Shown one piece after another: positions 1,674 through 31,543 of a stretch of DNA of 32,000 nucleotides. The stretch's first letter is position 1; every line of letters starts with the position of its first letter. The notes beneath the pieces were generated by a model. The model searched no databases. It was not told the origin of the DNA and was given only the letters and a program-made list of their open reading frames with translations. The position numbers were made by a program, and so were the translations under genes. Source of the DNA: an uncultured bacterium (GTDB lineage: Bacteria > Margulisbacteria > WOR-1 > CAVSGV01); contig OY969425.1 in assembly GCA_963699255.1 (NCBI GenBank), positions 90,001-122,000 of the forward strand. The letters are read 5' to 3'.

Positions 1674-2186
1674 TGTTAAAAGGGCGCGAAAGAGCTGCTG
1701 CTGTCCTGTCGCTTCTGGGAGATGAACTTTCTCAGAAGATTCTTAAGTTATCTTCCCGAAAATGACGCTGTCGCAATAATATCCGCCTCCGAACAGTTAA
1801 AGACCCCTACAAAGCAAGTGTTGCTGGATGTCGTTTCTGAATTTAATGATTACATGGTGAATGCCCAGAAAGCGCCTGTCGAGGCGGTTAAAGAAGAAGG
1901 AATAAGCGAGGCACAGCCTGTCCCCTCTGCTCAACAGGGGACCCCGCTTGATATCATTTCCAGAGCTTCTGCTCAATCTTTGGCTAAAGCGCTTGAACCT
2001 GAGAGGCCGGAGATATCCGCATATGTCCTTTCACATCTTCCGGCCGAGAAGATCTATGAGATATTGAACCTTCTTAAAGAGAATAAAGATCTGGTTGAAT
2101 CAAGGTTGCTGTCAATGAAGGATGTGCCTATTGCGAAAGAGATCGAAGATCAGGTATTGAAGAGCATATCCGAAAGGCTTACTTAA
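1673..2186 (+). CDS. fliG: FliG-like rotor protein, N-terminal and middle domains only, interrupted by a +1 frameshift (possible pseudogene or recoded gene)
   Basis: GGAGGAGG SD plus GTG 1673, overlapping the fliF stop (TAGTG), opens frame 2: VLKGRERAAAVLSLLGDELSQKILK... This is a FliG N-domain signature and it stops at TGA 1763-1765. Frame 3 (ORF-track ORF 1722..2186) continues ...LSYLPENDAVAIISASEQLKTP...ERPEISAYVLSHLPAEKIYEILNLLKENKDLVESRL, which looks like FliG N/middle ARM repeats. ATG 1722 has no properly spaced SD. The gene occupies the fliG slot between fliF and fliH. Confidence 0.7.
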
Positions 2187-4213: not shown

Positions 4214-4227
4214 TCAAGGAGTAGTTT

Positions 4228-4695
4228 ATGCCGCGCGAGCAAAAACCCGGAAAATTCAAATATTCTCTTGAGACCGTTCTTAAGGTAAGAGGAATAAGGG
4301 AACGCAAGGAAAAAGAGAGGTTCGCCGAAAAAGAAAGAGAATATAACACAGAAAAACTGAAGGAAGAACAGCTTGAGGAAGAAAAAACGGAAAAAGAGGG
4401 CGAACTGAAGCATATCATCAAGAAGGGGCCGATATCGGAATTCGAAAAAGTGCTCAGGCGGCACGCTCATCTCGGGGTCTTGAGGAAGGATATCGACGAA
4501 CAGATAGAAAAAGTGATAGATGCTTCTAAGCGTCTCGAGACGCAGAGGGCAAAGCTAGTTGAGTCGATGAAGGAAAGGAAGATCATGGAAAAGGACAAGG
4601 AGCATAAGCTGAGTGATTATGATATTATGATGAAAGACCTGGAGATCAAGTTCCTTGATGAAATAGCTACTGAGCGTTTTAAACGGGGGCTTTAG
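4228..4695 (+). CDS. fliJ: Flagellar export chaperone-like protein FliJ
   Basis: 155 aa and highly charged coiled coil. The N-terminus KFKYSLETVLKVRGIRERKEKERFAE fits the FliJ family pattern. AAGGAG SD lies 8 nt upstream. It sits after fliI. Confidence 0.7.
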   Translation: MPREQKPGKFKYSLETVLKVRGIRERKEKERFAEKEREYNTEKLKEEQLEEEKTEKEGELKHIIKKGPISEFEKVLRRHAHLGVLRKDIDEQIEKVIDASKRLETQRAKLVESMKERKIMEKDKEHKLSDYDIMMKDLEIKFLDEIATERFKRGL

Positions 4696-10763: not shown

Positions 10764-11687
10764 TTGAAAATACTCGTTACCGGCGGAGCCGGGTTTATCG
10801 GCTCCCACTTGTGCGACTTTCTCCTTGAAAAAGGCCACTTTGTCATATGCGTGGATAATCTTCTTACGGGCAATATAAAGAACATAAGGCATAATCTCCA
10901 GAACAAAAGATTTGAATTCTTGAAACACGATATCATCAAGCCATTAAAATTCCCCGGCAGGCTCGATCATATCCTTCACTTTGCCTCTCCCGCCAGCCCG
11001 GTCGATTACATGAATTATCCACTGGAAACTCTCGATGTCGGCTCGTTCGGCACAAAGAACATGCTTGAGCTTGCGAGAAAGAAGAAAGCCAGGCTCATAC
11101 TGGCTTCAACCTCCGAAGTTTACGGTGATCCGAAAGTATCTCCTCAGGAGGAGGGGTATTTTGGGAACGTTAATTCGGTCGGGCCAAGGTCAGTATATGA
11201 TGAGGCAAAACGTTTTGCCGAAGCATTGACTTCGGCATACACCAGGGAAAAGCTCGTTGAGGGAAAGATCGTCAGGATATTCAACACATACGGGCCCAGA
11301 ATGGGACTTGATGACGGACGCGTTGTCCCAAACTTCATCAAGCAGGCCTTGACAGGACAGGCTTTGACCATATACGGGGACGGAAGCCAGACGAGGAGCT
11401 TTTGCTATGTGTCAGACCTGGTCTCGGGAATATATAAGCTGATGTATGCAAAGATAAGCGGGCCTGTAAATCTGGGGAACCCTAAAGAACTGAAGATCAT
11501 CGATTTCGCGGACGTCATCGTCAAGTTGACCGGGAGCAAAAGCAAGATCGTTTTTAAGCCTCTTCCGCAGGATGATCCAAAGCAGAGGCGCCCGGACATT
11601 TCAAAGGCAAAAAAAGAGCTGTCGTGGAGTCCGGAAGTAAGCCTCGAAGAAGGACTTAAAAAGACCATAGAGTGGTTCTCAAAATAG
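10764..11687 (+). CDS. uxs: UDP-glucuronate decarboxylase (UDP-xylose synthase)
   Basis: [16 protein letters not shown]...[10 protein letters not shown]...[40 protein letters not shown]...[10 protein letters not shown]...[13 protein letters not shown]...[16 protein letters not shown]. This is the classic UXS signature. TTG start directly after the ugd stop. Confidence 0.9.
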
Positions 11688-11734: not shown

Positions 11735-12685
11735 ATGGCAAAGAAGGCGTTCATAACGGGCGGTGCGGGGTTTATCGGCAGCCACCTGGTCGATAGACTG
11801 GCGAAAAAGGGATGGCATGTCACCGTATATGATAATTTGTCTTCCGGAAAAGAAAGCTTCATCAGGCATCACTTAGGCAGGAAATATTTTAAATTCATCA
11901 GGGCTGATCTTCTTGACCTCAAAAAGCTGAAAAAGAGCGTTCGGGGACATGATGTTGTTTTTCATCTGGCGGCAAATCCCGATATACGGTACGGGATAAA
12001 ATTTACCGATGTGGACCTTAAGCAAAATACGATAGCGACCTATAATGTGCTTGAATCAATGCGTCTCGCGGGCATAAAAGAGATCATCTTTGCTTCCACT
12101 TCAACGATATATGGTGAGCCCGCGATCATGCCTACGCCCGAGGATTATGGGCCTCTCTATCCAATTTCGCTTTATGGGGCAAGCAAGCTGGCTTGCGAGG
12201 CGCTTTGCACTTCTTTCTCCCACACTTTCAAAATGAAATGCTGGATATTCCGGTTCGCAAACATCGTTGGAGGAAGAGGTACCCACGGACTTATCTACGA
12301 CTTTATCGCAAAACTCAGGAAAGACCCCCAAAAACTCGAGATACTCGGGGATGGCAGACAGACCAAATCCTATCTTTTGGTCGATGACTGTGTGGACGCG
12401 ATGCTGTATGTTCATGAACGAAGCAGGGAACAGTTCAATGTTTTCAATCTCGGAAGCAGGGATCGGGTAAATATTAAAACCATCGCCGGGATCCTCACCG
12501 GTAAAATGGGACTGAGAGATGCGAAGTTCTCGTTTACGGGAGGAAAGCGCGGGTGGCCGGGAGATGTCCCCCGGATGTTCCTTGCCGTCGGCAAACTCTC
12601 AAGGCTCGGGTTTAAGGCCGGGCACAATTCAAGAGAAGCCGTGGAAATAGCCATAGAAAGGATGCTCGGGGAGTGCAGGCGGTAA
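11735..12685 (+). CDS. NAD-dependent sugar epimerase/dehydratase (extended SDR, GalE-like; substrate unknown)
   Basis: [27 protein letters not shown] and a YxxxK catalytic motif (YGASKLACE). 316 aa. Confidence 0.85.
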   Translation: MAKKAFITGGAGFIGSHLVDRLAKKGWHVTVYDNLSSGKESFIRHHLGRKYFKFIRADLLDLKKLKKSVRGHDVVFHLAANPDIRYGIKFTDVDLKQNTIATYNVLESMRLAGIKEIIFASTSTIYGEPAIMPTPEDYGPLYPISLYGASKLACEALCTSFSHTFKMKCWIFRFANIVGGRGTHGLIYDFIAKLRKDPQKLEILGDGRQTKSYLLVDDCVDAMLYVHERSREQFNVFNLGSRDRVNIKTIAGILTGKMGLRDAKFSFTGGKRGWPGDVPRMFLAVGKLSRLGFKAGHNSREAVEIAIERMLGECRR

Positions 12686-13404
12686 TTTTAGCCGGCGGTG
12701 CGGGCACCAGGCTCAGGCCTTTGACACTGGCTGTCCCGAAGCCGATGATAAAGATAAACGGGAAGCCGTTTTTGCAATATATTCTCGAAGAACTTAAAAA
12801 ATACGGGGTCAGGGATATTATCCTTTGCGTCGGATATTTAGCGGATAAGTTCAAGGAATATTTTGGCGACGGCTCAAAATTGGGTATCAATCTGTCATAT
12901 TCGGTTGAGCGTGAGTTCCTCGGCACAGCGGGGGCTGTAAAACTTGCCGAGAAATATCTGGAGGATGATTTTGTATTGATGAACGGGGACACTTATTTGC
13001 CGATCGATTATGCGGAAATATATGGTGAGTTCAAGAAGTCGGGAAAAATGGGACTGATGGTCGTTTATGACAACAGGGAAAAAGTCGCCCTGGAGAATGT
13101 TTCGGTTGACGACCAGGGGCTGGTGGATGCTTACGAGAAGAAGGAGCCCTTAAAAAAAGGCGATCAGCTGGTTGAGGTCAAGACAGGCCCGTCAAAAGAT
13201 TATAAATATGTGGATGCGGGCGTATATGTTTTTAACAGGGATATTCTTAAGCTCATCGAGAGGGGCAGGTTCGTTTCTCTTGAGGGTGATGTCTATCCCG
13301 AGCTTATTAAAAGCCGGCAGCTTAAGGCACACATAACCTCTAAAAGATATTATGACCTGGGAACGCCGGAGAGAATGGAGCTAATAAAGGGGCTGCTTAA
13401 ATGA
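12673..13404 (+). CDS. hddC: Sugar-1-phosphate nucleotidyltransferase, probable D-glycero-alpha-D-manno-heptose-1-phosphate guanylyltransferase
   Basis: QAVILAGGAGTRLRPLTLAVPKPMIKINGKPFL signature. Operon context with a GHMP heptose kinase, GmhA and GmhB. GTG start overlaps the upstream gene by 13 nt. Confidence 0.75.
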   Translation: MQAVILAGGAGTRLRPLTLAVPKPMIKINGKPFLQYILEELKKYGVRDIILCVGYLADKFKEYFGDGSKLGINLSYSVEREFLGTAGAVKLAEKYLEDDFVLMNGDTYLPIDYAEIYGEFKKSGKMGLMVVYDNREKVALENVSVDDQGLVDAYEKKEPLKKGDQLVEVKTGPSKDYKYVDAGVYVFNRDILKLIERGRFVSLEGDVYPELIKSRQLKAHITSKRYYDLGTPERMELIKGLLK

Positions 13405-14381
13405 TAATCTCAAGGACGCCGTTAAGGATAAGCTTTTTTGGCGGAGGGACCGACCTTAAGGAATTCTATGGGCTTGAGGGAGGGGCGGTGCTTTCAACGG
13501 CGATCGACAAGTATATCTTTGCGACCGTGAACAAGAAATTCGATGAACACATAAGGGTTTCTTATTCTGAGACCGAGATCGTTGAGCGTGTTGATCAGAT
13601 CCGCCATGATCTTGTCAGGGAAGCGATGAAACTCGCGGGGGTGCTGAAAGGGATCGAGATGACCACGATCGCGGACATCCCGTCCCAGGGGACAGGGCTT
13701 GGTTCATCCAGCACTTTTACCGTCGGGATACTTAATGCGCTTCACGCCTATAAAGGCGAATATGTTTCCGCCGAAACTCTGGCGAACGAAGCGTGCAAAA
13801 TAGAAATAGATATCGTAGGAGAGCCGATCGGTAAACAGGACCAGTACATCGCCTCTTACGGCGGATTTCAATTCATACAATTCAACAAGGACGGCTCGGT
13901 CTTCGTTGATCCGATCGTCTGCAGCGGAGAACTGAAAGAGGAGCTTTGCGGCAATCTTATGCTTTTCTATACGGGCGTTACCCGCAGGGCGAACACGATA
14001 CTTGCCGAACAGAAAAAAAAGGCATCGAACGACAAGATAAAAGAGCTCAAAGCGCTAAAGGACCTGGCTGTTATTTCCCGCAGATCATTGGAAGTGGATC
14101 AGTCTATCGATCAATTTGGGAGATTGCTTGATGAAGGTTGGAAGTTAAAGAAATCCCTGGCGAGCGGAATATCGAACGCCGAGATCGACGCGATGTATGA
14201 AAAAGCAAAAAAGGCGGGGGCGCTGGGGGGAAAGATAACCGGGGCGGGCGGCGGAGGGTTCCTCCTGCTGTATGTCCCCGGGAACAGGCAGGAGCATGTG
14301 AGGAGCGCGCTGCATCCGCTCAGGCAGATCGATTTCAAATTTGAGCCGCAGGGAAGCAAGATAATTTACGTCACGGATTAG
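13401..14381 (+). CDS. hddA: GHMP-family sugar kinase, probable D-glycero-alpha-D-manno-heptose-7-phosphate kinase
   Basis: MIISRTPLRISFFGGGTDL N-terminus. GHMP motif PSQGTGLGSSSTF. C-terminal GKITGAGGGGFLLLY. ATGA overlap with hddC. Confidence 0.8.
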   Translation: MIISRTPLRISFFGGGTDLKEFYGLEGGAVLSTAIDKYIFATVNKKFDEHIRVSYSETEIVERVDQIRHDLVREAMKLAGVLKGIEMTTIADIPSQGTGLGSSSTFTVGILNALHAYKGEYVSAETLANEACKIEIDIVGEPIGKQDQYIASYGGFQFIQFNKDGSVFVDPIVCSGELKEELCGNLMLFYTGVTRRANTILAEQKKKASNDKIKELKALKDLAVISRRSLEVDQSIDQFGRLLDEGWKLKKSLASGISNAEIDAMYEKAKKAGALGGKITGAGGGGFLLLYVPGNRQEHVRSALHPLRQIDFKFEPQGSKIIYVTD

Positions 14382-14393
14382 GAGGGGATAACA

Positions 14394-14972
14394 ATGCCGG
14401 GAAAATTCGCGAAGCAATATCTATCCGAGCTTGTCGACAGCATAAACGATCTCCCTTTTGACGGGATCAGGGAAGTCGTGAGCGTATTGAAAGAGGCTTA
14501 CAGAAAAGGGAGACATGTCTTTATCATGGGGAACGGCGGAAGCGCGGCCACGGCGTCCCATTTTGTGTGCGACCTTTCCAAGGGAACACGGGTTTCCGGA
14601 AAAAAACATTTTAAGGCCATAGGGCTGATCGACAATGTGCCTCTTCTTACCGCGTGGAGCAACGACGTCACCTTTAAAGATGTATTTAAAGCGCAGCTCG
14701 AAAACCTTCTAAGCGCGGGGGACGTAGTCGTCGTTTTTACCGGCAGCGGTAATTCCCCGAACGTTCTGGAAGCGGCAAAATACGCCAAAAAAATTAAAGC
14801 CAAAACAATAGCTTTTACGGGGTTCAACGGGGGCAAGATCAAGAAACTGGCCGATGTTTGCCTGATTGTTCCTTCAAATAACATGGAGAGGATCGAAGAC
14901 CTCCATCTGATCCTGGAGCACCTTATCAAGCTTTACCTATGGGAGGAGATCCGTGAAGGTCGTCTTTCTTGA
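14394..14972 (+). CDS. gmhA: Phosphoheptose isomerase (SIS domain)
   Basis: IMGNGGSAATASHFVCDLSKG and FTGSGNSPNVLEA SIS motifs. 192 aa. AGGAGG SD. Confidence 0.9.
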   Translation: MPGKFAKQYLSELVDSINDLPFDGIREVVSVLKEAYRKGRHVFIMGNGGSAATASHFVCDLSKGTRVSGKKHFKAIGLIDNVPLLTAWSNDVTFKDVFKAQLENLLSAGDVVVVFTGSGNSPNVLEAAKYAKKIKAKTIAFTGFNGGKIKKLADVCLIVPSNNMERIEDLHLILEHLIKLYLWEEIREGRLS

Positions 14973-15444
14973 CAGGGACGGCGTAATAAACAAAAAGATC
15001 GAGAACGGCTACGTTCTTTACTGGAAGGACTTTGAATTCCTTCCGGACGTTGATAAGGCAATAAAGCTGCTTAACGAGAACAGGATCCCCGTCATCGTGA
15101 TAAGCAATCAAGCGTGTGTCGGAAAGGGGCTTATTACCAGGCGGAGGCTTGACGATATTAATGGAAGGATGATGGAGGAATTGAAGAAGAAAGGGGCGCA
15201 TATTGACGATATTTTCGTTTGCCCCCACAAAGCCGAGGATGACTGCGGCTGCAGGAAACCAAGAACGGGGTTGTTCAAGCAGGCTTCTGAAAAACATGAT
15301 ATTGATTTCAAGGGCTCGTTATTCATCGGGGACAGCCCGGAAGACGCGGGGGCCGGATGCGGCGCGGGATGCAATACTTATCTTTTAAAAAATGGGGAAA
15401 ACCTCATGTCCGTGGTTGAAAAGGCTTTAAAGCAGCTTAAATGA
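14953..15444 (+). CDS. gmhB: D-glycero-D-manno-heptose 1,7-bisphosphate phosphatase (HAD-IIIA)
   Basis: VFLDRDGVIN (DxDGT/V nucleophile motif). Zn-binding CPHKAEDDCGCRKPRTGL. FIGDSPED. GTG start overlaps gmhA by 20 nt. Confidence 0.85.
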   Translation: MKVVFLDRDGVINKKIENGYVLYWKDFEFLPDVDKAIKLLNENRIPVIVISNQACVGKGLITRRRLDDINGRMMEELKKKGAHIDDIFVCPHKAEDDCGCRKPRTGLFKQASEKHDIDFKGSLFIGDSPEDAGAGCGAGCNTYLLKNGENLMSVVEKALKQLK

Positions 15445-20993: not shown

Positions 20994-21011
20994 ATGGATG
21001 CGTTTGAATAA

Positions 21012-21989
21012 CTAATTGTTTAAATAATATTTTATTGCTTTTTCAATCCCGGTTTTAAATTTAATTTTGTATTCATATCCAAGCTGTTTTAATTTTGTGG
21101 GATCTCCTACCCGGGAAAAAACTCCGCTTGGTTTGTCAGAAGTTCCTCGTATTTCAGGCGCATATCCGCAAATACCTGCAGCTATTTTTGCAAAATCAAT
21201 AAAACTGGTATGAATACCTGTGCACAAATTAACAGCCTCAGCATTATCAATTTTATCTATTGTTATTAATATTGCATCGATGCAATCATCGATATGGATA
21301 AAATCACGCATTTGTTCGCCTGTCCCCCAAACAGTAACAATTGGTTTCCCTTGATTAGCGATGACCCGCTTACAAATACTTGGGAATGGATAGGTATCAT
21401 CTTGATCTACTCCATAACCCGAAAAAGGACGATAAATAATTGATCTTATGCCGTTTTTCTGATGTGCCAGTTTGGCGAGATACTCACATGTCAATTTTGC
21501 CCAACCATAGCTCATATCTGGCATCCCAATGTTATTTTCAAACGAGACCATATCCTCAGTTAATGATTTGTGATCCGTTTTTTGTTGATATTCAACAGGG
21601 TAAGCCGCACTTGAACTAAAACATGCTGTCTTGCGTGGCTTTGTTTTCGCCGCCCACTCCCAGTATTCAGCGTCTATTGAAAGATCATCTGCAACTGCAA
21701 GCGGGTTGTTTTCGATCATTGATCTGCCGCCAACCATAGCGGCTAAATGAAAACAATAATCAAAATCAGTATCAAGGTGTTTATTGAAGTATTCTCGGCA
21801 ATCCATTTGATAAAAATGAAAGCTCTTGTAATCCAAAGGTTTAAACAACGGCCATAACTTTGGCGTTATTCCGCCGGTAAATTCAGCTATTTTATCGACA
21901 CAGTGGACTTCATTTCCATTTTCGAGAAGACGTTTAATTAAATGTCTCCCGACAAAACCCGCACCGCCTGTGACAAGGACCTTACGCAT
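21012..21989 (-). CDS. NAD-dependent sugar epimerase/dehydratase (extended SDR; substrate unknown)
   Basis: [29 protein letters not shown] and YxxxK (SYGWAKLTCEY). Start placed at ATG 21989 (AGGAGG SD 8 nt upstream, 8-nt overlap with the upstream gene). Low-GC gene. Confidence 0.85.
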   Translation of the reverse strand: MRKVLVTGGAGFVGRHLIKRLLENGNEVHCVDKIAEFTGGITPKLWPLFKPLDYKSFHFYQMDCREYFNKHLDTDFDYCFHLAAMVGGRSMIENNPLAVADDLSIDAEYWEWAAKTKPRKTACFSSSAAYPVEYQQKTDHKSLTEDMVSFENNIGMPDMSYGWAKLTCEYLAKLAHQKNGIRSIIYRPFSGYGVDQDDTYPFPSICKRVIANQGKPIVTVWGTGEQMRDFIHIDDCIDAILITIDKIDNAEAVNLCTGIHTSFIDFAKIAAGICGYAPEIRGTSDKPSGVFSRVGDPTKLKQLGYEYKIKFKTGIEKAIKYYLNN

Positions 21990-22908
21990 TAAAATGCCTC
22001 CTATATAATTCAAAGGCCTTGATCGATTGCTCCGGCAAGTAATTTAATATTGCATTCGGATCTGAATAGATACTTGTAACAAGCTTTAGATTGTTTTCAT
22101 AACCGAGATATTCTCGCTTCATATCCACTACAAGGTCATGAATGTTCCTTTTTTGATAAACGGATGCTTTATTGAAGAATACTTTTGCACCAAGCGCTTG
22201 CACATAGTAAGCCGCCCATATGTCATCCATTCTGCCAATGTGCGGGAAAAGGAAATAATTACGCAATATTGATCGACTTAAGAATGTATTCTGCGAATTA
22301 AATGGAGCGATCTTGTTCGATGCTATCGGAAATACAGAAGGGTCAAAATTGCATTCAGGAGCGTATATCATCCTGCAAACCGCATCAATATCTGGATCGC
22401 CATTCCAGAAATCAGCTTGTATCTCAAATTTCATCTTCTTTTTAGATATATTATTATATGAACGTTTAGGAATAAGCTGTAAAGGGTATCCCCGATGCCA
22501 TAAGTTTTTCTCATTAGTTGCTCCAACGGGGTCAAACACCGGTAAGTCCGTCTCAAAATAGTTCACCTCGATCGTCTCTCCAACCAATACGTTTTTGCCC
22601 CAATCTTCATACGGGATATTGTCATCATCAATAACGGCGATAATGTCCGCTCCCATTTCATATGCCCAGAGAAGGCCAAAATTGCGTCGCTGAATGCATT
22701 TCCATCCTATTGCTTCGGATAAGGCGCTGTCTTTCTTCTCCTGCATTTCCGGGGAGACATAGATGCCCCTTTTCAGTTTATAGTCAACAGGGGTTTTTAA
22801 ATCCCCAACTACTATCAATGTCCACTCATTCATCGCATCAAACTTTTCTATGGCTTCTGTCGGGCCATTTATTGTTGTTGTCACAATTACATTTTTTGTT
22901 TTTTTCAT
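21982..22908 (-). CDS. GT75 (reversibly glycosylated polypeptide / UDP-arabinopyranose mutase)-STELLO(DUF288)-like protein
   Basis: 308 aa and soluble. The motifs VIVTTTINGPTEAI...WTLIVVGDLKTPVDY...RRNFGLLWAYEMGADIIAVIDDDNIP...LWHRGYPLQL...WNGDPDIDAVCRM...IGRMDDIWAAYYVQ...DMKREYLGYE parallel plant RGP motifs (DDDC, VRGYPFSL, IGRYDDMWAGWCVK, NLKKEYKG). They also parallel the STELLO N-terminal pattern. Assigned from memory of those families, with no search run. Confidence 0.6.
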   Translation of the reverse strand: MKKTKNVIVTTTINGPTEAIEKFDAMNEWTLIVVGDLKTPVDYKLKRGIYVSPEMQEKKDSALSEAIGWKCIQRRNFGLLWAYEMGADIIAVIDDDNIPYEDWGKNVLVGETIEVNYFETDLPVFDPVGATNEKNLWHRGYPLQLIPKRSYNNISKKKMKFEIQADFWNGDPDIDAVCRMIYAPECNFDPSVFPIASNKIAPFNSQNTFLSRSILRNYFLFPHIGRMDDIWAAYYVQALGAKVFFNKASVYQKRNIHDLVVDMKREYLGYENNLKLVTSIYSDPNAILNYLPEQSIKAFELYRRHFNA

Positions 22909-23666
22909 CTTATCCCTTTTCCGATCAAAAGCCTTTTATTCGAACAGAATAAAACCTTTAAACCTATCCCAAAATAAAGGAAATTTCTTAGAAATGTGTT
23001 CTTTGAACCCCCCTCAGTTCTCGCCTTCCATGCAACAGGGACCTCCACCACTTTTATGCCAAGTCGTAACGGTTTGATTATTGTTTCCAGCAAAAATGGA
23101 TGTTTCAGCTCTTCCCATCTTATTTGTTGGACAATATTTACGGGAAACAGCCTATAGCCGTAAGTCATATCGGTTAGATCCGTAAAATATAAGACAGAAA
23201 ACAATTTCTGAAACAAGAAGTTCAGGAAATATTTTAACTTACCGTAGCCGTAAAAGCCACCGCCTTTGATCCATCTTGAACCGGTGATGATCCGGTCAGG
23301 GTACTTTTTTGACTCAGATATAAAGTCTTTTACTTTATCTGGCGGAGTTTCCAGGTCGCTGGCCATCATCAATATGTGACTGCCGAGCGCATGCGAAAAT
23401 GCATCGCGCAAAGCTCCGCCAAGAAAGGGAAGGTTTTGCTTTAATATCTTTATTTTGTTGCCATATTTATTACGAAGCTTTTCGCATATTTCCAGGCTCG
23501 ACCGGCTTGTTTTTTCGCATACAACTATTATAAATTCAAGTACATCTGCACTGCAATCAGCCATTATTGTTTTTACAGTTATTTCTAAAGAGGTTGTTTC
23601 ATCTGTGACAGGTAAAATCACCGATAAAGATTCGAACCTTTTGTTCGCTGGCAGTAAGTTTTTCAT
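22905..23666 (-). CDS. GT2 polyprenyl-phosphate glycosyltransferase-like (Dpm1/GtrB/ArnC-like)
   Basis: LSVILPVTDET...LEFIIVVCEKTSRSS...GGALRDAFSHALGSHILMMASDLETPP...ITGSRW...DLTDMTYGYRLF...VVEVPVAWKARTEGGSKNTF follows the Dpm1-like GT2 layout. ATGA overlap with the downstream gene. Confidence 0.7.
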   Translation of the reverse strand: MKNLLPANKRFESLSVILPVTDETTSLEITVKTIMADCSADVLEFIIVVCEKTSRSSLEICEKLRNKYGNKIKILKQNLPFLGGALRDAFSHALGSHILMMASDLETPPDKVKDFISESKKYPDRIITGSRWIKGGGFYGYGKLKYFLNFLFQKLFSVLYFTDLTDMTYGYRLFPVNIVQQIRWEELKHPFLLETIIKPLRLGIKVVEVPVAWKARTEGGSKNTFLRNFLYFGIGLKVLFCSNKRLLIGKGIR

Positions 23667-23926
23667 TTAAGCAATAATCGCATGGTCAATTTGTTGATGC
23701 ATTATACTATATTAAAACGTTTAAATTAAGCAAAAGTCAAATCAATTAGTCGAATATTTATGATAGAATACAACCAATGTTATCAATACGCATGATCCTT
23801 TTGAGCGTCGGAACGATATGCTAAGCTGGCGTCTGAGAAAAAATCGAAACGAGAAAACCCTATAAGACCAACCAGCAGATGTTGCGTTGCAAGACTGGGG
23901 ATTCCCGTGCTTTTACGGAGGCAAAG
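23667..23926. promoter_or_regulatory. AT-rich divergent promoter region of the low-GC module
   Basis: A 260-bp gap between divergent operons, the largest non-coding stretch in the window. An extended -10-like TGATAGAAT lies at 23761-23769 on the plus strand. A GGAGG SD lies 5 nt before TTG 23927. Confidence 0.4.
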
Positions 23927-25426
23927 TTGAAAAAAACAATATTGATCGCATTGGCCGCGCTAATCCTTGCAAGCTTGATCTTTGTATTTTATTCTTCTGC
24001 ACTGAAGTTGAATTTCTTATACGGTGATGATTATAATATTATCAAAGCAAGTTACTTGAATCCCGCACAATATTATTTGGGGAACTGGACGGGCGGCCGC
24101 GGGGTGGGAGGCTTTTACCGGCCGGTAATTATTTCATCGGTCAAGTTGGGTGATTTTTTGTGGGGGATCGGGCCTTTCGGATATCGTCTGTCCAATTTGA
24201 TTCTCCATGTAGCGTGCACTTTTTTTGTGTTTTTGATCGCATACCATGTCCTGAATAGCTATTTATTTGCGTTGTCCTCCGGAGCCTTATTTGCCATATT
24301 GCCGCTGAATGCAGAGACAGTGAATTGGAGCAGGTGCGATCTGGTAGCGACAATGTTCTATCTGGCGGCTTTTTATTTTTATTTATTATATTCAAAAAAG
24401 AGGTATAAGTGGGGCCTTTTGCTCTCGCTCTTATCCTTTGTTCTTTCCCTGGGATCAAAGGAATCCGCATTGTCACTGCCTTTAATCATTTTTGTTTATG
24501 AGTATTTGAATAACGGCTTTAAGAATATAAGCAGAATCATCGGGGCTTACTTCCTTGTCCTTATTCCATACTTTATTCTAAGGTATTTTTCATTGGGAAC
24601 ATTTTTTGGCGGTTATAAGGTAGGCGTTTTCAGCGCGATCACACATGCGCTTTTTGGGTATTTAAGGACTTTCCAGCTGGTGGCTTTGCCTTTCATACAG
24701 GAGAGGATTTTATTGTATTTTATTCTTGCGCCCTTGATCATTCTGGCGGTTTTGATTTTTATGGTTCATTACGTTAAAAGATACGATCCTCCAAAAACCT
24801 TTTATTTTTTCTTGATATGGCCGCTAATAACCCTTTTACCGGCTGCCCACTTACTCCCCATAGGGTTTGATTTTCGTTGTTCAAGATTTTGGTATTTACC
24901 TTCCGCGGGCATATCATGGCTTATTGCTTATTTCGCTTTTGTTGAAGGATACGGAGCTCAAAAGAAAGTAATGGCGGCAAGCAAGGTCGCCTATCTGATA
25001 TTCTTTATTTACAGCTGTTTTTTCCTCGTTCAAATTAACAATGTCTGGATGAAGGCTTCGGATATGACCAGAATAATACGGCAAGAGGCGATAAAAATAG
25101 TAGAGCGCTACCCAAAAGGCTCCAGGATATGCTTCTGGAATATCACCGACAATTACAAAGGGTGTTATGTCGGCATGCCGTTCTTAGAGCCGCCGTTTTA
25201 TGAAAGCCGATGGATCATCATGGGGTATCAAAGTGATTATTTGTCTTATTCGGACATATCGAAAAAGATCGATGTCAATGAATACGATAATTATGTTTAT
25301 AACGCATCGGAAGGGCGGTTTAATAGGGTTGCTCCGTCGTATATTAAGCGAAACGATGTCCCAAGGGTTGTTGATGATTTCAATAACTTGAAAAGATTCA
25401 AGGCGTTCTTAAAGGGGATAAAATGA
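23927..25426 (+). CDS. GT-C fold membrane glycosyltransferase (PMT/TMTC/ArnT-like), paralog 1
   Basis: Polytopic. The acidic pair just after TM1 (LNFLYGDDYNIIK), followed by FYRPV...LWGIGPFGYRLSNLILHVACTFFVFL, matches the PMT_2/TMTC-type N-terminal pattern. It has a soluble C-terminal domain of about 130 aa. Start probably TTG 23927; the track ORF begins at ATG 23879. Confidence 0.7.
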   Translation: MKKTILIALAALILASLIFVFYSSALKLNFLYGDDYNIIKASYLNPAQYYLGNWTGGRGVGGFYRPVIISSVKLGDFLWGIGPFGYRLSNLILHVACTFFVFLIAYHVLNSYLFALSSGALFAILPLNAETVNWSRCDLVATMFYLAAFYFYLLYSKKRYKWGLLLSLLSFVLSLGSKESALSLPLIIFVYEYLNNGFKNISRIIGAYFLVLIPYFILRYFSLGTFFGGYKVGVFSAITHALFGYLRTFQLVALPFIQERILLYFILAPLIILAVLIFMVHYVKRYDPPKTFYFFLIWPLITLLPAAHLLPIGFDFRCSRFWYLPSAGISWLIAYFAFVEGYGAQKKVMAASKVAYLIFFIYSCFFLVQINNVWMKASDMTRIIRQEAIKIVERYPKGSRICFWNITDNYKGCYVGMPFLEPPFYESRWIIMGYQSDYLSYSDISKKIDVNEYDNYVYNASEGRFNRVAPSYIKRNDVPRVVDDFNNLKRFKAFLKGIK

Positions 25427-26829
25427 AAGGCCCATTTAAAACCATTCGCTTGTTCCTTTTATTGTTTTTCCTTAACTTGATCATATTTGTCCGGGTCTTT
25501 CCTTCATTCTTTTATGTGGACGAGTTCGAGCTGATCTATTCACAGAGGTTCGGAAGTATACAAGAACTTATTTTCAGGATATTTGCTTCCTCGACCAGTT
25601 ATTTATTCCGCCCCATGTATTATCTAATGTTCGGCCTTTATTATAAGATATGCCTTTTTAACATGGCGTATTGTTACGCTTTGCCTTTCCTTGCCCATTT
25701 CATTGCGGCTATTTCAGTGTATTACTTTTTGTTAAGGGATGAAAACGATTCATCTTTTGCGGCGATCGGGTCGATCTTGTTCATCATATACTGCGGCGTT
25801 TGGGAGGCCGTTGGCTCCATATCCGGGATACTCTATCCCATGACGGCCATATTTTTATTGAACGCTTTCATCTGCTATTTCAACAGGCGATACTGGTTTT
25901 CGTTCTTGCTGTTTGCGATGGGATTGTTGACGCATGAAGTGTCCATCATGTTCGTTCCTTTGGTGCTGTTATATGAAAGGATGGTAAACAATAAGAGGAT
26001 GAGCTTAAGTTCATTTAAAGGCCTATATGCCAGCTCGCTTTTAACCATAGCTTTTCTTTTCTTTTATTTCTTCAAGAAACTTTTTTTCCATGCGGCGCCC
26101 ATGTCGGATAAATATGTTATAGGGCCGCATTTTTTTTGGAATGAACTGAATTACATAGCGACCTTATTTATCCCGATCATAACGAGTTATAGGATGCAGT
26201 CGGTATTACCGGGAACGATAATTAAAGCGATCGATCTCGCTAAACTTGGGGTCGTTTGCCTGGTTCCATTCGGCATTTTGGCCGTGTTCTTATATGGGCC
26301 GGGAAAAGCAAAATTTTTCACCTGTTGGGGCTTATTGACCTTGCTGCCCTTCTCGTTTTTTATTACCCCCGCGGTATCCCGTTATTTATATATTGCTTCG
26401 ATCGGATATATCGCGGGAGTGGTGTTATTTATTGATCATTTGCTCAGAAGCGACAAGTATAAAAAGATCGGCATTATAATATTTACGCTCTTATTCGTTG
26501 GGAACATTGGCGGGATGTACGCCTATCAAAAACTTTTTTATAATAAAAAGGAGGTCAGAAGACAGATAATAAATGATGTCATTGCTCAAGCCCCCAAGAT
26601 CAAACTCAATTCCCGTATATGCTTCATAGATTTGCCGATCAGGGATGATGAGATAAAAAACATGATATATCTTTGGTATAAAAGCGACAGGTACAAAATA
26701 TATACTATCAATGCTGATAATGTGCCTTACAGGCGGGGCTATGATCCCAAAAGGAGATATTCGTACGATTATGTTTTTGTCTATAATTGTGCGGGCGGAA
26801 GAACAAAGCTTGTGAACGGTCGCAATTGA
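25423..26829 (+). CDS. GT-C fold membrane glycosyltransferase (PMT/TMTC/ArnT-like), paralog 2
   Basis: Same layout as paralog 1: FFYVDEFELIY after TM1, then LFRPMYYLMFGLY...LAHFIAAISVYYFL. Its C-terminal soluble domain shares the SRICF motif with paralog 1. ATGA overlap with paralog 1. Confidence 0.7.
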   Translation: MKGPFKTIRLFLLLFFLNLIIFVRVFPSFFYVDEFELIYSQRFGSIQELIFRIFASSTSYLFRPMYYLMFGLYYKICLFNMAYCYALPFLAHFIAAISVYYFLLRDENDSSFAAIGSILFIIYCGVWEAVGSISGILYPMTAIFLLNAFICYFNRRYWFSFLLFAMGLLTHEVSIMFVPLVLLYERMVNNKRMSLSSFKGLYASSLLTIAFLFFYFFKKLFFHAAPMSDKYVIGPHFFWNELNYIATLFIPIITSYRMQSVLPGTIIKAIDLAKLGVVCLVPFGILAVFLYGPGKAKFFTCWGLLTLLPFSFFITPAVSRYLYIASIGYIAGVVLFIDHLLRSDKYKKIGIIIFTLLFVGNIGGMYAYQKLFYNKKEVRRQIINDVIAQAPKIKLNSRICFIDLPIRDDEIKNMIYLWYKSDRYKIYTINADNVPYRRGYDPKRRYSYDYVFVYNCAGGRTKLVNGRN

Positions 26830-26889: not shown

Positions 26890-27933
26890 ATGCATGATAA
26901 AAAACAGATTGTAATGGTGACCGGTGGGGCCGGATACATTGGGGCCGTTCTTGTGAGGGAGCTTTTAAGGCAGGGATATGGGGTCAGAGTATTTGATACG
27001 CTTTATTTCGGGAAAGAATCCCTTTCCGAAATAGAAGATAAGATCGAGATCGTCCGGGGCGATGTTAGGGAGTTCCCCAGCGGGGCATTAAGCGGCGTCT
27101 CCTCTGTTATTCATCTTGGTTCGCTTTCAAATGATCCCACCGCGGAATTCGACCCGAAATCAAACCATGAGATAAACTGCGAGGGGACAAAGCGCGTTGC
27201 CGAAGCCTGTAAGAAGGCCGGGGTAAAAAGAATGACCTTCGCTTCTTCCGCGGCCGTTTACGGTTTTCATGTCGGCAGCGTTGCCGATGAGGGATTCAGA
27301 ACTAATCCTCAATCGGAATACGCGCAGTCAAAGCTTGATGCCGAAAAAGCGCTGTTGGAATTGGCGGACGGCGGATTTTGCCCCGTTATTCTTCGCCAGG
27401 CGACGGTATTCGGCCTTTCAACCCGGATGAGATGGGACCTGGTCGTGAATACGATGACAAAGGATGCTTTTAGCAAGAAGAAGCTAACTGTTTTTTGCGA
27501 AGGAGAGAATTGGAGGCCGCTTGTTTCGGTGAATGATGTCGCGAGAGCGCACATACGATGCATGGTAGCTCCGGAATCAAAGGTCAGGGGCCAGATTTTC
27601 AATGTTGTACATGAGAACCTGATGATACTTGAACTCGCAGGTTTAATGAAAGGATATCTTGATAAAAAGCAGAGGATCGAAGTTGAGGTCCTTTCCGGAG
27701 CGAAAGAGTCAAGAAGTTACAGGGTATCCGGCGAGAATATCAAGAAAGTTCTGGGCTTTGAGACGAAGTTCGGCATCGAAGACGCGGTGAACGAAATATA
27801 TTCGGCGCTTCTGCTGGGCCTCTATACGGATTTTGAGAACCCGATCTATTATAATATCGAATGGATGAAACTGCTGGCGGAAAGATCGAAAAAATCAAGC
27901 CTGGCAGGATACGGCACAAAAGGAGCCGCATGA
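26890..27933 (+). CDS. NAD-dependent sugar epimerase/dehydratase (extended SDR; substrate unknown)
   Basis: IVMVTGGAGYIGAVLVRELL, ASSAAVYG and YxxxK (YAQSKLDAE). Start placed at ATG 26890 (GGAGA SD) rather than the TTG 26833 of the track. Confidence 0.85.
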   Translation: MHDKKQIVMVTGGAGYIGAVLVRELLRQGYGVRVFDTLYFGKESLSEIEDKIEIVRGDVREFPSGALSGVSSVIHLGSLSNDPTAEFDPKSNHEINCEGTKRVAEACKKAGVKRMTFASSAAVYGFHVGSVADEGFRTNPQSEYAQSKLDAEKALLELADGGFCPVILRQATVFGLSTRMRWDLVVNTMTKDAFSKKKLTVFCEGENWRPLVSVNDVARAHIRCMVAPESKVRGQIFNVVHENLMILELAGLMKGYLDKKQRIEVEVLSGAKESRSYRVSGENIKKVLGFETKFGIEDAVNEIYSALLLGLYTDFENPIYYNIEWMKLLAERSKKSSLAGYGTKGAA

Positions 27934-28796
27934 AAATCCTTCTGATAGGCGCGGACGGGCAGCTAGGCACGGACATTCAAAAAGTGATAGACAGATCAGA
28001 ACTTATCCCTCTTACTATTGCTGACATTGATGTTACAAAAAAAGAAAGCATTTCGTCGGTTATCGGCAGGCATAAACCGGATATCGTTATCAACACATCC
28101 GCGTACCACAGGGTGGATGATTGTGAGGACAATGATGAACTTGCTTTCGCGGTCAATGCCATTGGCGTGAAGAACCTCTGTCTGTCCTGCAGGGAAAATG
28201 ATGCCGCGCTGGTCCATATAAGCACGGATTATGTTTTTGACGGCAGGAAGGGCAAGCCGTATTTCGAAACGGATTGTCCGAATCCCGGCACCGTATACGG
28301 CATTTCAAAGCTCGCGGGCGAGCTTTATGTGAGATACATGGTGAAGAAATATTTTCTTATCAGGTCATGTGGACTGTTCGGAGTGGCAGGATGCCTCGGC
28401 AAAGGCGGAGGGAATTTTATCGAGTCCATGCTCAAGCTTGGAAAAGAAAAGCCCGTATTAAGGGTCGTCGCCGACCAGATAGTCGGACCTACATATACCC
28501 TGGACCTGGCGAGCAAGATCAATGACCTTATCAGGACAGAATACTATGGCCTTTATCATGTCACAAATAAAGGAAAGTGCAGCTGGTATGACTTCGCGAA
28601 AAAAATATTCGAGTTGACCGGCACAAGAGTGAAGATCGAAAAGGCGACCACGTCGGAGTTCAAAGCAAAAGCCACAAGGCCGGCATATTCGGTCCTTGAG
28701 CACGGGAGTTTGAAGAAGGTCGGCCTTGATGACATGCGCACCTGGGATAAGGCGCTGGAAGCGTATCTCGAAGAAAAGAAACGGATAAATGGTTGA
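27930..28796 (+). CDS. rfbD: dTDP-4-dehydrorhamnose reductase
   Basis: MKILLIGADGQLGTDI...PDIVINTSAYHRVDDCE...LVHISTDYVFDG...YGISKLAGE...VADQIVGPTYTLDLA...CSWYDFAKKIF...RPAYSVL. ATG 27930 forms an ATGA overlap with the upstream SDR gene. Confidence 0.9.
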   Translation: MKILLIGADGQLGTDIQKVIDRSELIPLTIADIDVTKKESISSVIGRHKPDIVINTSAYHRVDDCEDNDELAFAVNAIGVKNLCLSCRENDAALVHISTDYVFDGRKGKPYFETDCPNPGTVYGISKLAGELYVRYMVKKYFLIRSCGLFGVAGCLGKGGGNFIESMLKLGKEKPVLRVVADQIVGPTYTLDLASKINDLIRTEYYGLYHVTNKGKCSWYDFAKKIFELTGTRVKIEKATTSEFKAKATRPAYSVLEHGSLKKVGLDDMRTWDKALEAYLEEKKRING

Positions 28797-29801: not shown

Positions 29802-30521
29802 ATGAAAGGCGTCATACTGGCTGGCGGGACGGGTTCAAGACTGTATCCTTTGACAAAAGTGACCAACAAACATCTTCTGCCTGTTGCCAGAAAGCCGATG
29901 ATATACCATCCGATCGAGAAACTGAAACAGGCCGGCATCGACGAGATCCTGATCGTGACGGGTGTAGAGCACATGGGGGATGTGGTGACGCTTCTGGGAA
30001 GCGGAAAGGAATTCGGCTGCAGGTTCACATATAAGGTGCAGGATGAAGCAGGAGGGATCGCACAGGCGCTGGGCATTGCGGAACATTTCTCTAACGGGGA
30101 AAAGATCCTGGTTATACTGGGAGATAATATTTTTGAGGAAGATCTATCGAAGATCGTATCTAAATTCGAGGGACAATCGTCCGGAGCAAAGCTGTTACTG
30201 AAAGAAGTAAAAGATCCGAACAGGTTCGGAGTCGCTGAGATCAAGGGGGATAAGATAGTCGGGATCGAGGAAAAGCCCAAAAAACCGAAAAGCAACCTGA
30301 TAGTGACAGGCATATACATGTACAACACCGACGTTTTCAAGATCATTAGAAAGCTAAGACCATCCACAAGGGGAGAACTGGAAATAACCGATGTGAACAA
30401 TGAATACATAAAACGCGGAGAAATAACGTATGAGATAATGCGGGGTTGGTGGACCGACGCGGGGACGTTTGAAACTCTTGAGCTGGCAAGCAGACTTGTT
30501 GAAGGGCGAGCGGCAAAGTGA
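29802..30521 (+). CDS. rfbA: Glucose-1-phosphate thymidylyltransferase (short form)
   Basis: MKGVILAGGTGSRLYPLTKVTNKHLLPVARKPMIYHPIEKL...QDEAGGIAQAL...LGDNIF...RFGVAE...EEKPKKPKSNL. Start at ATG 29802 (GGGAGG SD); the track ORF begins at GTG 29790 inside the repeat. Confidence 0.85.
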   Translation: MKGVILAGGTGSRLYPLTKVTNKHLLPVARKPMIYHPIEKLKQAGIDEILIVTGVEHMGDVVTLLGSGKEFGCRFTYKVQDEAGGIAQALGIAEHFSNGEKILVILGDNIFEEDLSKIVSKFEGQSSGAKLLLKEVKDPNRFGVAEIKGDKIVGIEEKPKKPKSNLIVTGIYMYNTDVFKIIRKLRPSTRGELEITDVNNEYIKRGEITYEIMRGWWTDAGTFETLELASRLVEGRAAK

Positions 30522-31543
30522 AAAGGATACTGGTCACAGGCGGCTGCGGATTCATCGGCAGCAATTTTATCAGACATGTAATCAATAAGGATTACTTCAT
30601 CTGCAACCTTGATGATCTGACCTACGCGGGCAATCTTGAGAATCTAAGTGACATTGCCGGCAAAAAGAACTACAGGTTCGTTAAGGGGGATATCGGCGAT
30701 CCGAAGATGGTCCGGAAGACGCTGACAGATTTTCACATTGACGCTATCATTAATTTTGCAGCTGAATCGCATGTTGACAGGAGCATATTAGGGCCCGAGA
30801 TATTCACAAGAACGAACGTTCTGGGCGCTCAGGTGCTTCTTGATGTTTCCCGGGAGCTGTGGTCAAAGAACTCCTTCAGCGGGAATAAGTTCATTCAAGT
30901 CTCCACAGATGAGGTTTACGGCTCTCTTGGCAGAACGGGCAAGTTCAGGGAAGACACGCCTCTCTCGGCGAACAGCCCTTATTCCGCGAGCAAAGCGGCT
31001 GCCGACCTTCTGGCCATGTCGTATCATAATACGTTCGGTTTTCCGGCGGTCATATCCAGGTGTTCAAATAACTACGGGCCTTATCAGTTTCCGGAGAAGT
31101 TCATACCTTTAATGATCATCAACGCGCTGTCAGGGCGTAGGCTTCCCGTATATGGGGACGGCTTGAACGTAAGGGACTGGCTGCATGTGGAGGACCATTG
31201 CAGCGCGATTGAAACCATACTTAAGAAAGGGAAGATCGGGGAGGTCTACAATATCGGCGGAAGCAACGAATGGAAGAACATCGATGTGGTCAAAGAAATA
31301 TTGAAGCTCCTCAACAAACCCGAATCGCTCATTGATTTTGTGACCGACAGGCTCGGGCACGATAGGCGGTACGCCATGGATGCGGGAAAGATCAGGAAAG
31401 AACTTGGATGGTGGCCAAAGCACAGGTTTGATGAGGGATTGAAGGAGACGATAGGGTGGTATCTGGAAAACAAAAGCTGGTGGAAGAAGATAATCAGCGG
31501 CGAATATAAGAGCTACTACAAGAAAATGTATAATGAAAGATGA
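30518..31543 (+). CDS. rfbB: dTDP-glucose 4,6-dehydratase
   Basis: ILVTGGCGFIGSNFIRHV...LTYAGNLENL...NFAAESHVDRSI...VSTDEVYGSL...SPYSASKAAADLL...RCSNNYGPYQFPEKFIPLMI...VYGDGLNVRDWLHVEDHC...DRLGHDRRYAMD. GTGA overlap with rfbA. Confidence 0.95.
   Translation: MKRILVTGGCGFIGSNFIRHVINKDYFICNLDDLTYAGNLENLSDIAGKKNYRFVKGDIGDPKMVRKTLTDFHIDAIINFAAESHVDRSILGPEIFTRTNVLGAQVLLDVSRELWSKNSFSGNKFIQVSTDEVYGSLGRTGKFREDTPLSANSPYSASKAAADLLAMSYHNTFGFPAVISRCSNNYGPYQFPEKFIPLMIINALSGRRLPVYGDGLNVRDWLHVEDHCSAIETILKKGKIGEVYNIGGSNEWKNIDVVKEILKLLNKPESLIDFVTDRLGHDRRYAMDAGKIRKELGWWPKHRFDEGLKETIGWYLENKSWWKKIISGEYKSYYKKMYNER

Follow-up and report, generated by a model that had tools for sequence, protein, structure and literature searches.

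A GT75-like protein encoded in a conserved bacterial gene cassette is a candidate flavin-independent mutase for lipid-linked furanose donors

In this study, we analysed a 32,000-nt stretch of DNA (hereafter the window) from contig OY969425.1 of an uncultured member of the Margulisbacteria, focusing on a 308-amino-acid (aa) protein for which we use the working name X. The X family is an uncharacterised bacterial subfamily of GT75, lying between MtdL and the plant reversibly glycosylated polypeptides (RGPs) on one side and the STELLO proteins on the other, as filed on sequence and predicted fold, and it is encoded across phyla in a small cassette together with a family 2 glycosyltransferase (GT2) and a short-chain dehydrogenase/reductase (SDR). 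The subfamily is new and its cassette uncharacterised, while the GT75 chemistry itself is known from MtdL, Hyg20 and the plant UDP-arabinopyranose mutase (UAM). Homology, fold, conservation of catalytic residues, gene coupling and conservation of the cassette were established directly; what we infer is that X acts as a mutase, that its product is loaded on a lipid, and which sugar and nucleotide are used. We lean, if not strongly, towards X being a cytoplasmic, divalent-metal-dependent, flavin-independent nucleoside diphosphate (NDP)-sugar mutase that would feed a polyprenyl-phosphate furanose donor, and the cassette probably makes a lipid-linked furanose for decoration of the cell envelope.

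21982..22908, minus strand: X, soluble GT75-fold protein, candidate metal-dependent NDP-sugar pyranose/furanose mutase (open reading frame (ORF) starting with ATG, homology to MtdL, AlphaFold2 model, Foldseek search)

The translation of this ORF contains AVIDDDNIP, LWHRGYPLQL, WNGDPDIDA, IGRMDDIWAAYYVQ and DMKREYLGYE as well as the N-terminal VTTTINGPT...LIVVGDLKTP, and a scan of the 308-aa sequence found no hydrophobic or transmembrane segment, in agreement with the original prediction, made from the DNA letters alone, of a soluble protein bearing these motifs. A search of the proteins with solved structures by sequence returned no family for X other than that of MtdL (phmmer E 9e-17), a protein of Marinactinospora thermotolerans (PDB 7XPR, 7XPS, 7XPT, 7XPU, 7YUA and 8HL8) known as the Mn2+-dependent guanosine diphosphate (GDP)-L-galactose/GDP-L-fucose pyranose-furanose mutase of GT75 in the A201A pathway (PMC9937993). 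A profile of the X family, built from 42 relatives that are 30-73% identical to X, matched MtdL with an E value of 2.7e-40, the match covering 268 of the 307 profile positions. The AlphaFold2 model built on this 42-member alignment (predicted local distance difference test score, pLDDT, 97; predicted template-modelling score, pTM, 0.94) retrieved MtdL entries as its top six Foldseek matches (E 1e-19 to 3e-21; template-modelling score, TM, on the query 0.77-0.83), followed by rice UAM2 (8CID; E 5e-11, TM 0.63), ordinary GT-A enzymes being at a TM of about 0.4. By sequence comparison X is thus clearly homologous to MtdL, though distantly, and its significant similarity to this characterised member places it by sequence relatedness within GT75 of CAZy; the modelled structure likewise shows the GT-A-derived fold, including the GT75-specific core and the C-terminal helices. 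The profile match, the fold and the fact that 8 of the 42 relatives match Pfam STELLO (best E 2.7e-12) uphold the earlier view of X as a GT75 (RGP/UAM)-like protein with a STELLO-like N-terminus, the latter at the level of the family rather than of X itself, and the structure search that had been proposed did retrieve a plant UAM, behind MtdL. STELLO proteins hold a GT75-related region (PMC4906169). In the literature, we found no published description of the X family or of a bacterial member of it. Two metagenomic relatives have unusual architectures: in P0263 (1162 aa), which matches Pfam STELLO with 83.5 bits, an X-like domain occurs twice in tandem (175-489 and 561-855), and P0161 (615 aa) joins X to a further domain of about 320 aa that has no annotation. 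Fusion proteins were considered as a clue to the substrate and none was informative, P0263 being a tandem duplication, the extra domain of P0161 being unannotated and a third, P0258, being a mis-called read-through of the cassette.

The functional residues of MtdL are well described. Asp109 and Asp111 form its DxD motif, Arg159 is the autoglycosylated arginine and proposed nucleophile, Asp195 orients this arginine, Ser228 and Gln229 bind sugar and phosphate, Arg257 binds the beta-phosphate and the sugar, Asp260 is the proposed general base, His287 is a Mn2+ ligand, Arg289 and His292 serve the diphosphate, and Asp87, which is Ser in plant UAMs, contacts O4 and O6 of the sugar; activity is abolished by D87N/S, D109N, R159K, D195N, Q229A, R257K and D260N (PMC9937993). 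Alignment to MtdL gave the following counterparts in X, all on the minus strand, with conservation counted in the 42 relatives.

22618..22629, minus strand: DDDN (D94-N97), equivalent to MtdL D109-D110-D111-N112, the DxD/Mn-diphosphate motif; at least 90% conserved
22489..22494, minus strand: R139-G140, R139 being equivalent to MtdL Arg159; R139 invariant (42 of 42)
22390..22392, minus strand: D173, equivalent to MtdL Asp195; invariant
22222..22233, minus strand: R226-M-D-D229, equivalent to MtdL Arg257 and Asp260; at least 90% conserved
22138..22155, minus strand: Q252-K-R254-N-I-H257, R254 and H257 being equivalent to MtdL Arg289 and His292 (gapless alignment of VVEHPRNEHDL with SVYQKRNIHDL)

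S205 and Q206 of X, which correspond to Ser228 and Gln229 of MtdL, as well as R254 and H257, are also conserved in at least 90% of the relatives.

The two genes that flank X in the operon encode the GT2 and the SDR, and two genes for polytopic proteins lie divergently beside them.

22905..23666, minus strand: Dpm1/ArnC/AglJ-like GT2 of 253 aa, candidate polyprenyl-phosphate glycosyltransferase loading the sugar on the lipid carrier (Pfam GT2, 1.4e-14)
21012..21989, minus strand: extended SDR of 325 aa, GDP-fucose-synthase-like, candidate 4-epimerase/4-reductase or lipid-linked-sugar epimerase (Pfam Epimerase, 1.6e-34)
23879..25426, plus strand: GT-C-like polytopic protein 1 of 515 aa, divergently transcribed, candidate extracytoplasmic transferase using a lipid-linked donor (weak PMT_2, E 0.0097; at least 6 hydrophobic segments)
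25423..26829, plus strand: GT-C-like polytopic protein 2 of 468 aa, overlapping protein 1 by 4 nt (at least 8 hydrophobic segments; no Pfam match)

The stop codon of the upstream GT2 gene overlaps the start of X as ATGA (4 nt), and the stop codon of X overlaps the start of the downstream SDR gene (ATG 21989) by 8 nt, with GGAGG preceding the SDR start. X is therefore translationally coupled to both neighbours, which bears out the coupling to one SDR that had been noticed earlier. No promoter or terminator signal above the shuffled expectation was found between GT2, X and SDR on the operon strand. The length of 325 aa for the SDR follows from the start at ATG 21989 and equals that of its orthologues. 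The NCBIfam matches of the GT2 are AglJ, dolichyl-phosphate (Dol-P)-hexose transferase and ArnC, and its matches in the PDB include the Pyrococcus Dol-P-mannose (Dol-P-Man) synthase PfDPMS (3e-11) and ArnC (4e-6); by sequence, a GT2 of the Dpm1/GtrB/ArnC type thus stands beside GT-C-like proteins, the combination that marks polyprenyl-phosphate-sugar systems. In the DAD motif of the GT2 the metal-binding Asp is retained, although the protein has ASD-L-E in place of DAD-L-Q and CEK in place of DDD (IVVCEKTS against VVVDDDSP and MASDLETPP against MDADLQHPP of Dol-P-Man synthase), and an orthologue from locus L040 has AER and MASDLETDP; judged by these alignments, the changes around the donor site are family-specific. 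The two GT-C-like proteins are weak paralogues (24% identity over 203 aa of the C-terminal part, E 3e-5), and more distant homologues of protein 1 are proteins with PF13231 PMT_2 and TPR domains labelled protein O-mannosyltransferase, so that the acceptor could be a protein.

The SDR has the NAD-binding glycine motif and YxxxK, and of the catalytic residues only the Ser-Tyr-Lys triad is kept. An acidic residue after the catalytic Ser/Thr marks SDR dehydratases and decarboxylases. The SDR of the window lacks this residue, and the epimerisation pair of GDP-fucose synthase, which we take to be Cys109 and His179, is replaced by Ala (SSSAAYP) and Tyr (DDTYPFP). A role as dehydratase, decarboxylase or 3,5-epimerase was rejected on these motifs, and with the other SDR chemistries excluded in this way the protein would be a simple epimerase or reductase.

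Taken together with the chemistry of MtdL, these data lead us to propose the following mechanism. The NDP-pyranose would be held by DDD94-96, by Gln252 with a metal ion, and by Arg226, Arg254 and His257, and Arg139 would attack its C1, by analogy with MtdL. Asp229, aided by Asp173, would shuttle protons while the ring opens and recloses via O4, after which the NDP-furanose would be released from X. The coupled Dpm1/ArnC-like GT2 would then move the minor furanose isomer onto polyprenyl phosphate, pulling an unfavourable equilibrium, and the lipid-linked furanose would be flipped and added by the neighbouring GT-C enzymes to an envelope glycan or protein. The SDR may supply a galacto-type NDP-pyranose, acting as 4-epimerase or 4-reductase, or may epimerise the sugar after lipid loading, a precedent for which is the SDR ORF13 of the Citrobacter undecaprenyl-phosphate (undP)-ribofuranose system; besides this auxiliary epimerase, the same work provides examples of GT-C transferases and of undP-pentofuranose donors (PMC11127046). 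The earlier suggestion that the product of X feeds the adjacent Dpm1-like and GT-C enzymes fits the conserved gene order as a proposal. That the GT2-X-SDR genes, with or without GT-C, form an undescribed, horizontally spread pathway leading from a flavin-independent GT75-type mutase through an NDP-furanose and polyprenyl phosphate to extracytoplasmic transfer is put forward tentatively, with a little less than even confidence.

Homologues of X are numerous. A collection clustered at 90% contained 5407 of them, up to 76% identical to X, with 2486 representatives at the 50% level, and every source name that we saw was 'hypothetical protein'. Cultured organisms that carry X include Dethiosulfatarculus sandiegensis SPR and Mesorhizobium ventifaucium STM4922. 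At least 374 X loci were found in about 185,600 species-representative genomes; the counts given below rest on the best 80 of these 374 loci, in which X is 63-74% identical to the protein of the window, and the denominators are the loci with room for the neighbour in question. The 80 loci span more than 12 phyla, and the groups named in the titles of their records are Margulisiibacteriota, Saganbacteria/WOR-1, Verrucomicrobiota, Lentisphaerota, Kiritimatiellota, Planctomycetota, Bacteroidota, Acidobacteriota, Alpha-, Gamma- and Deltaproteobacteria, Melainabacteria, Cyanobacteriota, Chlorobiota, Actinomycetota, Omnitrophota and Stahlbacteria. Directly upstream of X there is a GT2 orthologue in 60 of 76 loci, and directly downstream an SDR orthologue in 50 of 77; both flank X in 38 of 73, and a large membrane protein with at least seven transmembrane segments is encoded within 5 kb of X in 50 of 80. 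All-against-all clustering of the 898 ORFs from the 80 loci revealed no further conserved neighbour (flippase, nucleotidyltransferase or dehydratase) beyond GT2 and SDR. One WOR-1 genome has PMT_2 (GT-C)-GT2-X-SDR as an isolated group of four genes amid housekeeping genes, between the EF-P/biotin-carrier genes and recJ/purD, which indicates that the module is self-contained.

The phylogeny of X places the window protein with those of Margulisiibacteriota and Saganbacteria (Shimodaira-Hasegawa-like approximate likelihood ratio test, SH-aLRT, 94). Phylum labels take 26 changes on this tree, with a minimum of 15 and a mean of 53 after shuffling, and well-supported placements across phyla include Victivallales within Acidobacteriaceae, Chthoniobacterales within Bacteroidota and Prochlorococcus with Myxococcota and Verrucomicrobiota; the tree is thus consistent with repeated transfer between phyla. 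The five-gene module of the window (21000-26800) has a G+C content of 0.36-0.43, against 0.47-0.54 in the flanking polysaccharide genes, and this low value together with the cross-phylum placements fits a horizontal spread of the cassette. Several loci depart from the common arrangement. In three loci from Melainabacteria (L032, L069 and L086), the usual SDR is absent and two other SDRs (32-33% identical) lie a few kb upstream on the opposite strand. In L040, on the Phycisphaerales chromosome CP070806, there is no SDR and no UDP-xylose synthase (UXS), and there are two Gmd genes. In L023, X is flanked by GT4-type glycosyltransferases together with GT2, and L024 has the same gene order.

A number of observations weigh against X being a mutase that supplies the coupled GT2. 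The Mn-binding His287 of MtdL is Gln252 in X, Gln being conserved in at least 90% of the close relatives (alignment A2), a loss of His as in inactive plant RGPs. Asp87, essential in MtdL, is Ile72, invariant in the same alignment, and X falls 68 aa short of MtdL, the difference lying in the C-terminal helical region. Neither Pfam nor NCBIfam scans gave a match for X, even at E 10: the gathering threshold of RGP (PF03214) was not reached and STELLO/DUF288 (PF03385) was not matched, so that the Pfam search proposed earlier succeeded with relatives only, and among these STELLO, a family without demonstrated activity, was matched more often than RGP, which was touched by 1 of the 42 (E 0.15). Neither the module nor the set of neighbours conserved in the 80 loci was found to include a flippase gene (GtrA/SMR/MATE). 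About a third of the loci lack the SDR, and in genomes whose cassette is SDR-free no SDR orthologue was found elsewhere, so that the SDR appears to be accessory and GT2-X the core. In some loci, X occurs with GT4 genes and without GT2 (L042), and given these neighbours and those in L023, X seems to be used also inside ordinary cytoplasmic glycan assembly loci. Finally, of the precursor pathways represented by UXS, Gmd, RmlB and GalE, none tracks the cassette.

Some of these points would suit a true glycosyltransferase, STELLO-type or self/arginine-glycosylating, that puts, for example, a sugar onto a lipid-linked intermediate or a protein. The GT-A fold with a DxD motif, the autoglycosylation of an arginine by GT75 enzymes, the STELLO matches of the relatives and of the 1162-aa tandem-domain protein, the replaced Mn-His and the X genes lying among ordinary GT4 genes all speak for such an activity. 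However, the residue set for ring contraction in MtdL is conserved in X, several members of it being invariant, X is soluble and so has no membrane anchor for a lipid acceptor, the tight 1:1 pairing with a polyprenyl-phosphate GT2 is what would be expected of a donor-supplying enzyme, and no transferase activity has been demonstrated for STELLO proteins (PMC4906169). We consider a glycosyltransferase activity of X unlikely, if deserving of serious attention. The loss of the Mn-binding His would also agree with X being a scaffold or a partner without catalytic activity, as the class-2 plant RGPs are, the mutase-inactive AtRGP5 lacking the equivalents of both His287 and Arg257 (PMC9937993). Nevertheless, the Arg257 equivalent lost in AtRGP5 is kept throughout the X family (R226), the catalytic residues do not vary from phylum to phylum and no catalytic paralogue was seen beside X, and a scaffold role can hardly be credited. 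As for a mutase, Mn2+ or Mg2+ may still bind via the amide oxygen of Gln252.

With X taken as a mutase, the identity of its substrate may be approached from its nucleotide site, its partners and the sugar nucleotides at hand. Three positions of MtdL, Thr13, Asn42 and Ser86, are Pro, Asp and Asp in the plant enzymes that use uridine diphosphate (UDP)-sugars (PMC9937993). In the alignments with MtdL, X has K38 and C71 at the positions of Asn42 and Ser86, neither being the Asp of plants, and T11 probably corresponds to Thr13, a pairing that must be held as tentative because only residues 61-102 aligned to MtdL when the N-terminus was tried by sequence. These positions lean weakly towards GDP. The substrate domain in the C-terminal half of the SDR aligns best with GDP-fucose synthases, and the best NCBIfam match of the whole protein is GDP-L-fucose synthase (Fcl; 1.2e-29, far under the cut-off), while its full-length PDB matches are UDP-hexose and UDP-glucuronic acid (UDP-GlcA) 4-epimerases and UXS, with GDP-mannose 3,5-epimerase also among them. 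A GDP-sugar is thus favoured by three weak leanings, X being nearest to MtdL, the SDR substrate domain to GDP-fucose synthase and the GT2 to an enzyme using GDP-mannose (GDP-Man). With Ile72 in the place of Asp87, a sugar whose C6 is absent or not polar would fit, i.e. a pentose or a 6-deoxyhexose.

These leanings, with MtdL as the closest characterised protein, could mean that X acts exactly like MtdL and Hyg20 on GDP-L-galactose or GDP-L-fucose, the SDR being a GDP-mannose 3,5-epimerase or GDP-fucose synthase. Against this stand the loss from the SDR of both epimerisation residues (Cys109 to Ala and His179 to Tyr), the replacement of the essential Asp87, and the distribution of Gmd. In the genome of the window (1.77 Mb, one contig, 95% complete), no Gmd was found, the best match giving 87 bits against a cut-off of 415; Gmd was present in three of six carriers of the cassette, the genome of the window being counted among the six, and was absent from two of the five others, one of them an isolate genome. 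We therefore hold such an MtdL-identical activity to be very improbable.

The lack of Gmd, which would make GDP-fucose-type substrates unavailable, is one point in favour of the pentose route that had been envisaged for this locus, in which the SDR would be a UDP-xylose 4-epimerase and X a UDP-L-arabinopyranose mutase, giving polyprenyl-phosphate-L-arabinofuranose from the UDP-xylose (UDP-Xyl) of the locus itself. As had been stated, the window encodes Ugd (9453-10763) and a genuine UXS (10764-11687; E 5e-109 to human UXS1), about 10 kb upstream in the same locus; the full-length PDB matches of the SDR and its Ser-Tyr-Lys triad agree with a 4-epimerase, the known substrates of GT75 mutases are all galacto-configured, like L-arabinose (PMC9937993), and Ile in X for Asp87 of MtdL, a position that is Ser in plant UAMs, would go with a sugar that lacks the hydroxyl at C6. 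UXS orthologues were found in 20 of 26 cassette-bearing genomes. This presence is uninformative, since 185 of 201 sampled Verrucomicrobiota (92%) have UXS anyway, and no UXS orthologue was found in the other 6 carriers, which include a complete chromosome. X is far closer to the GDP-using MtdL (TM 0.8) than to rice UAM2 (0.63), two of the three positions that separate GDP from UDP are not plant-like, the SDR has its GDP-fucose-synthase-like substrate half, and in WOR-1 the cassette stands alone among housekeeping genes. As a general rule, the conversion of UDP-Xyl via UDP-L-arabinopyranose to UDP-L-arabinofuranose is therefore not supported, MtdL and Hyg20 also using GDP-sugars (PMC9937993), and the reading as a whole is in our view distinctly unlikely. 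For the genome of the window, where Ugd and UXS share the locus and Gmd is lacking, the formation of L-arabinofuranose (L-Araf) from its own UDP-Xyl is a live option.

The other precursor pathways were no more telling. UXS, GalE and RmlB are all present in the genome of the window. RmlB was found in 10 of 11 carriers, the one without it being a Mesorhizobium isolate, and in 10 of 14 control genomes, and for GalE the loci that have the SDR did not differ from those that lack it. A phylum-wide 2x2 co-occurrence table was dropped, since of 401 sampled Planctomycetota the seed genome alone proved to have the cassette SDR. Given that the cassette is autonomous, a common precursor is favoured. Downstream of ugd-uxs, the window holds a GDP-D-glycero-alpha-D-manno-heptose-type set (12673-15444) encoding an HddC-like nucleotidyltransferase, an HddA-like GHMP kinase, a GmhA-like SIS isomerase and a GmhB-like phosphatase, accompanied by an SDR (11735-12685); all four are under the NCBIfam equivalog cut-offs, and with this set GDP-heptose is a locally available candidate substrate. 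RmlD (27861-28796; 288.6 bits) and RmlB (30518-31543; 480.7 bits), both over the cut-off, flank a rhamnosyltransferase-like GT2, so that the locus also makes sugars of the dTDP-L-rhamnose type. At the other end of the window (240-4695) there is a flagellar export block of FliF, a short FliG-like ORF, FliH, the FliI ATPase and FliJ, followed by recG, rsmD, coaD and rph and then by the glycan locus.

To our knowledge, all GT75 mutases described so far come from plants or from two actinomycete antibiotic pathways. If our proposal is right, the linking of a GT75-type mutase with a lipid-carrier GT2 and GT-C proteins would be a new way to envelope furanosides and a further route of extracytoplasmic furanosylation beside the one based on phosphoribosyl pyrophosphate (PRPP), as in mycobacterial decaprenyl-phosphate-arabinofuranose. 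It might bring a sugar that is new in lipid-linked form, such as a hexofuranose (galactofuranose, Galf, or fucofuranose, Fucf), L-Araf or a furanose derived from GDP-Man, and would offer a first approach to the function of the STELLO branch of GT75, which may clarify the plant STELLO proteins. We know of no furanosides in mammals, and for this reason furanoside glycans are immunologically and ecologically distinctive. The X family is of interest because it occurs so widely, has no annotation and could be tested by one enzyme assay; because it has no Pfam model and is labelled hypothetical everywhere, a single assay could annotate thousands of genes.

Compared with known systems, X is most like MtdL and Hyg20, with which it shares the GT-A-derived fold (TM about 0.8), the DxD motif, nucleophile Arg, general-base Asp, Asp195, Ser-Gln, beta-phosphate Arg and the Arg and His of loop A, and which are likewise soluble, flavin-independent and encoded beside sugar-tailoring genes of the SDR type (PMC9937993). 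It differs from MtdL in its low identity (about 22% over the structural alignment), in the changes of His287 to Gln and Asp87 to Ile and in being 68 aa shorter, and from both proteins in that it lies outside antibiotic clusters, is coupled to polyprenyl-phosphate GT2 and GT-C-like genes and occurs in more than 12 phyla. The plant RGP/UAM proteins (GT75, PF03214; rice UAM2, 8CID) share with X the fold family, DDD, R-G-(Y/F)-P and the proposed arginine-adduct chemistry, whereas X has no PF03214 match at E 10, a TM of 0.63 and no plant Asp at two of the three nucleotide positions, and is bacterial and encoded in an operon. The STELLO/DUF288 proteins (PF03385), Golgi regulators of cellulose-synthase assembly, have the same N-terminal TTT...GDxKTP and DDD layout but are much longer proteins, anchored in the membrane and facing the Golgi lumen, for which no activity is known. 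In the papers that we consulted, the mutases reported to form furanoses for bacterial surface glycans are flavin adenine dinucleotide (FAD) enzymes (e.g., PMC12369002). Members of this FAD-dependent UDP-galactopyranose mutase family, such as Glf, Fcf2 and C. jejuni HS41.17, perform the same net reaction as proposed for X with an unrelated fold and cofactor, X having no flavin-binding motif.

At the level of the pathway, the Gtr (GtrA/GtrB/GtrC), Arn (ArnC/ArnT) and Rgt systems resemble the X cassette in combining a GT2 polyprenyl-phosphate sugar synthase with a GT-C transferase, but they use pyranose donors and have no mutase, and the GT2 of the X cassette has CEK for DDD and ASD-L-E for DAD-L-Q. 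The Citrobacter youngae O1/O2 system (PPPRS, MATE flippase, GT136 GT-C and the SDR epimerase ORF13) and the mycobacterial decaprenyl-phosphate-arabinofuranose/Emb-Aft system both form a polyprenyl-phosphate-furanose in the cytoplasm and use it outside by GT-C enzymes (PMC11127046). No flippase gene is conserved in the X cassette, in contrast to the MATE flippase of Citrobacter, and there, as proposed for the cassette, it is an auxiliary SDR that decides which sugar is used (PMC11127046). The Citrobacter and mycobacterial donors arise from PRPP via a UbiA-like synthase, whereas that of the X cassette would arise from an NDP-sugar via a GT75 mutase and a GT2 of the GtrB/Dpm1 type.

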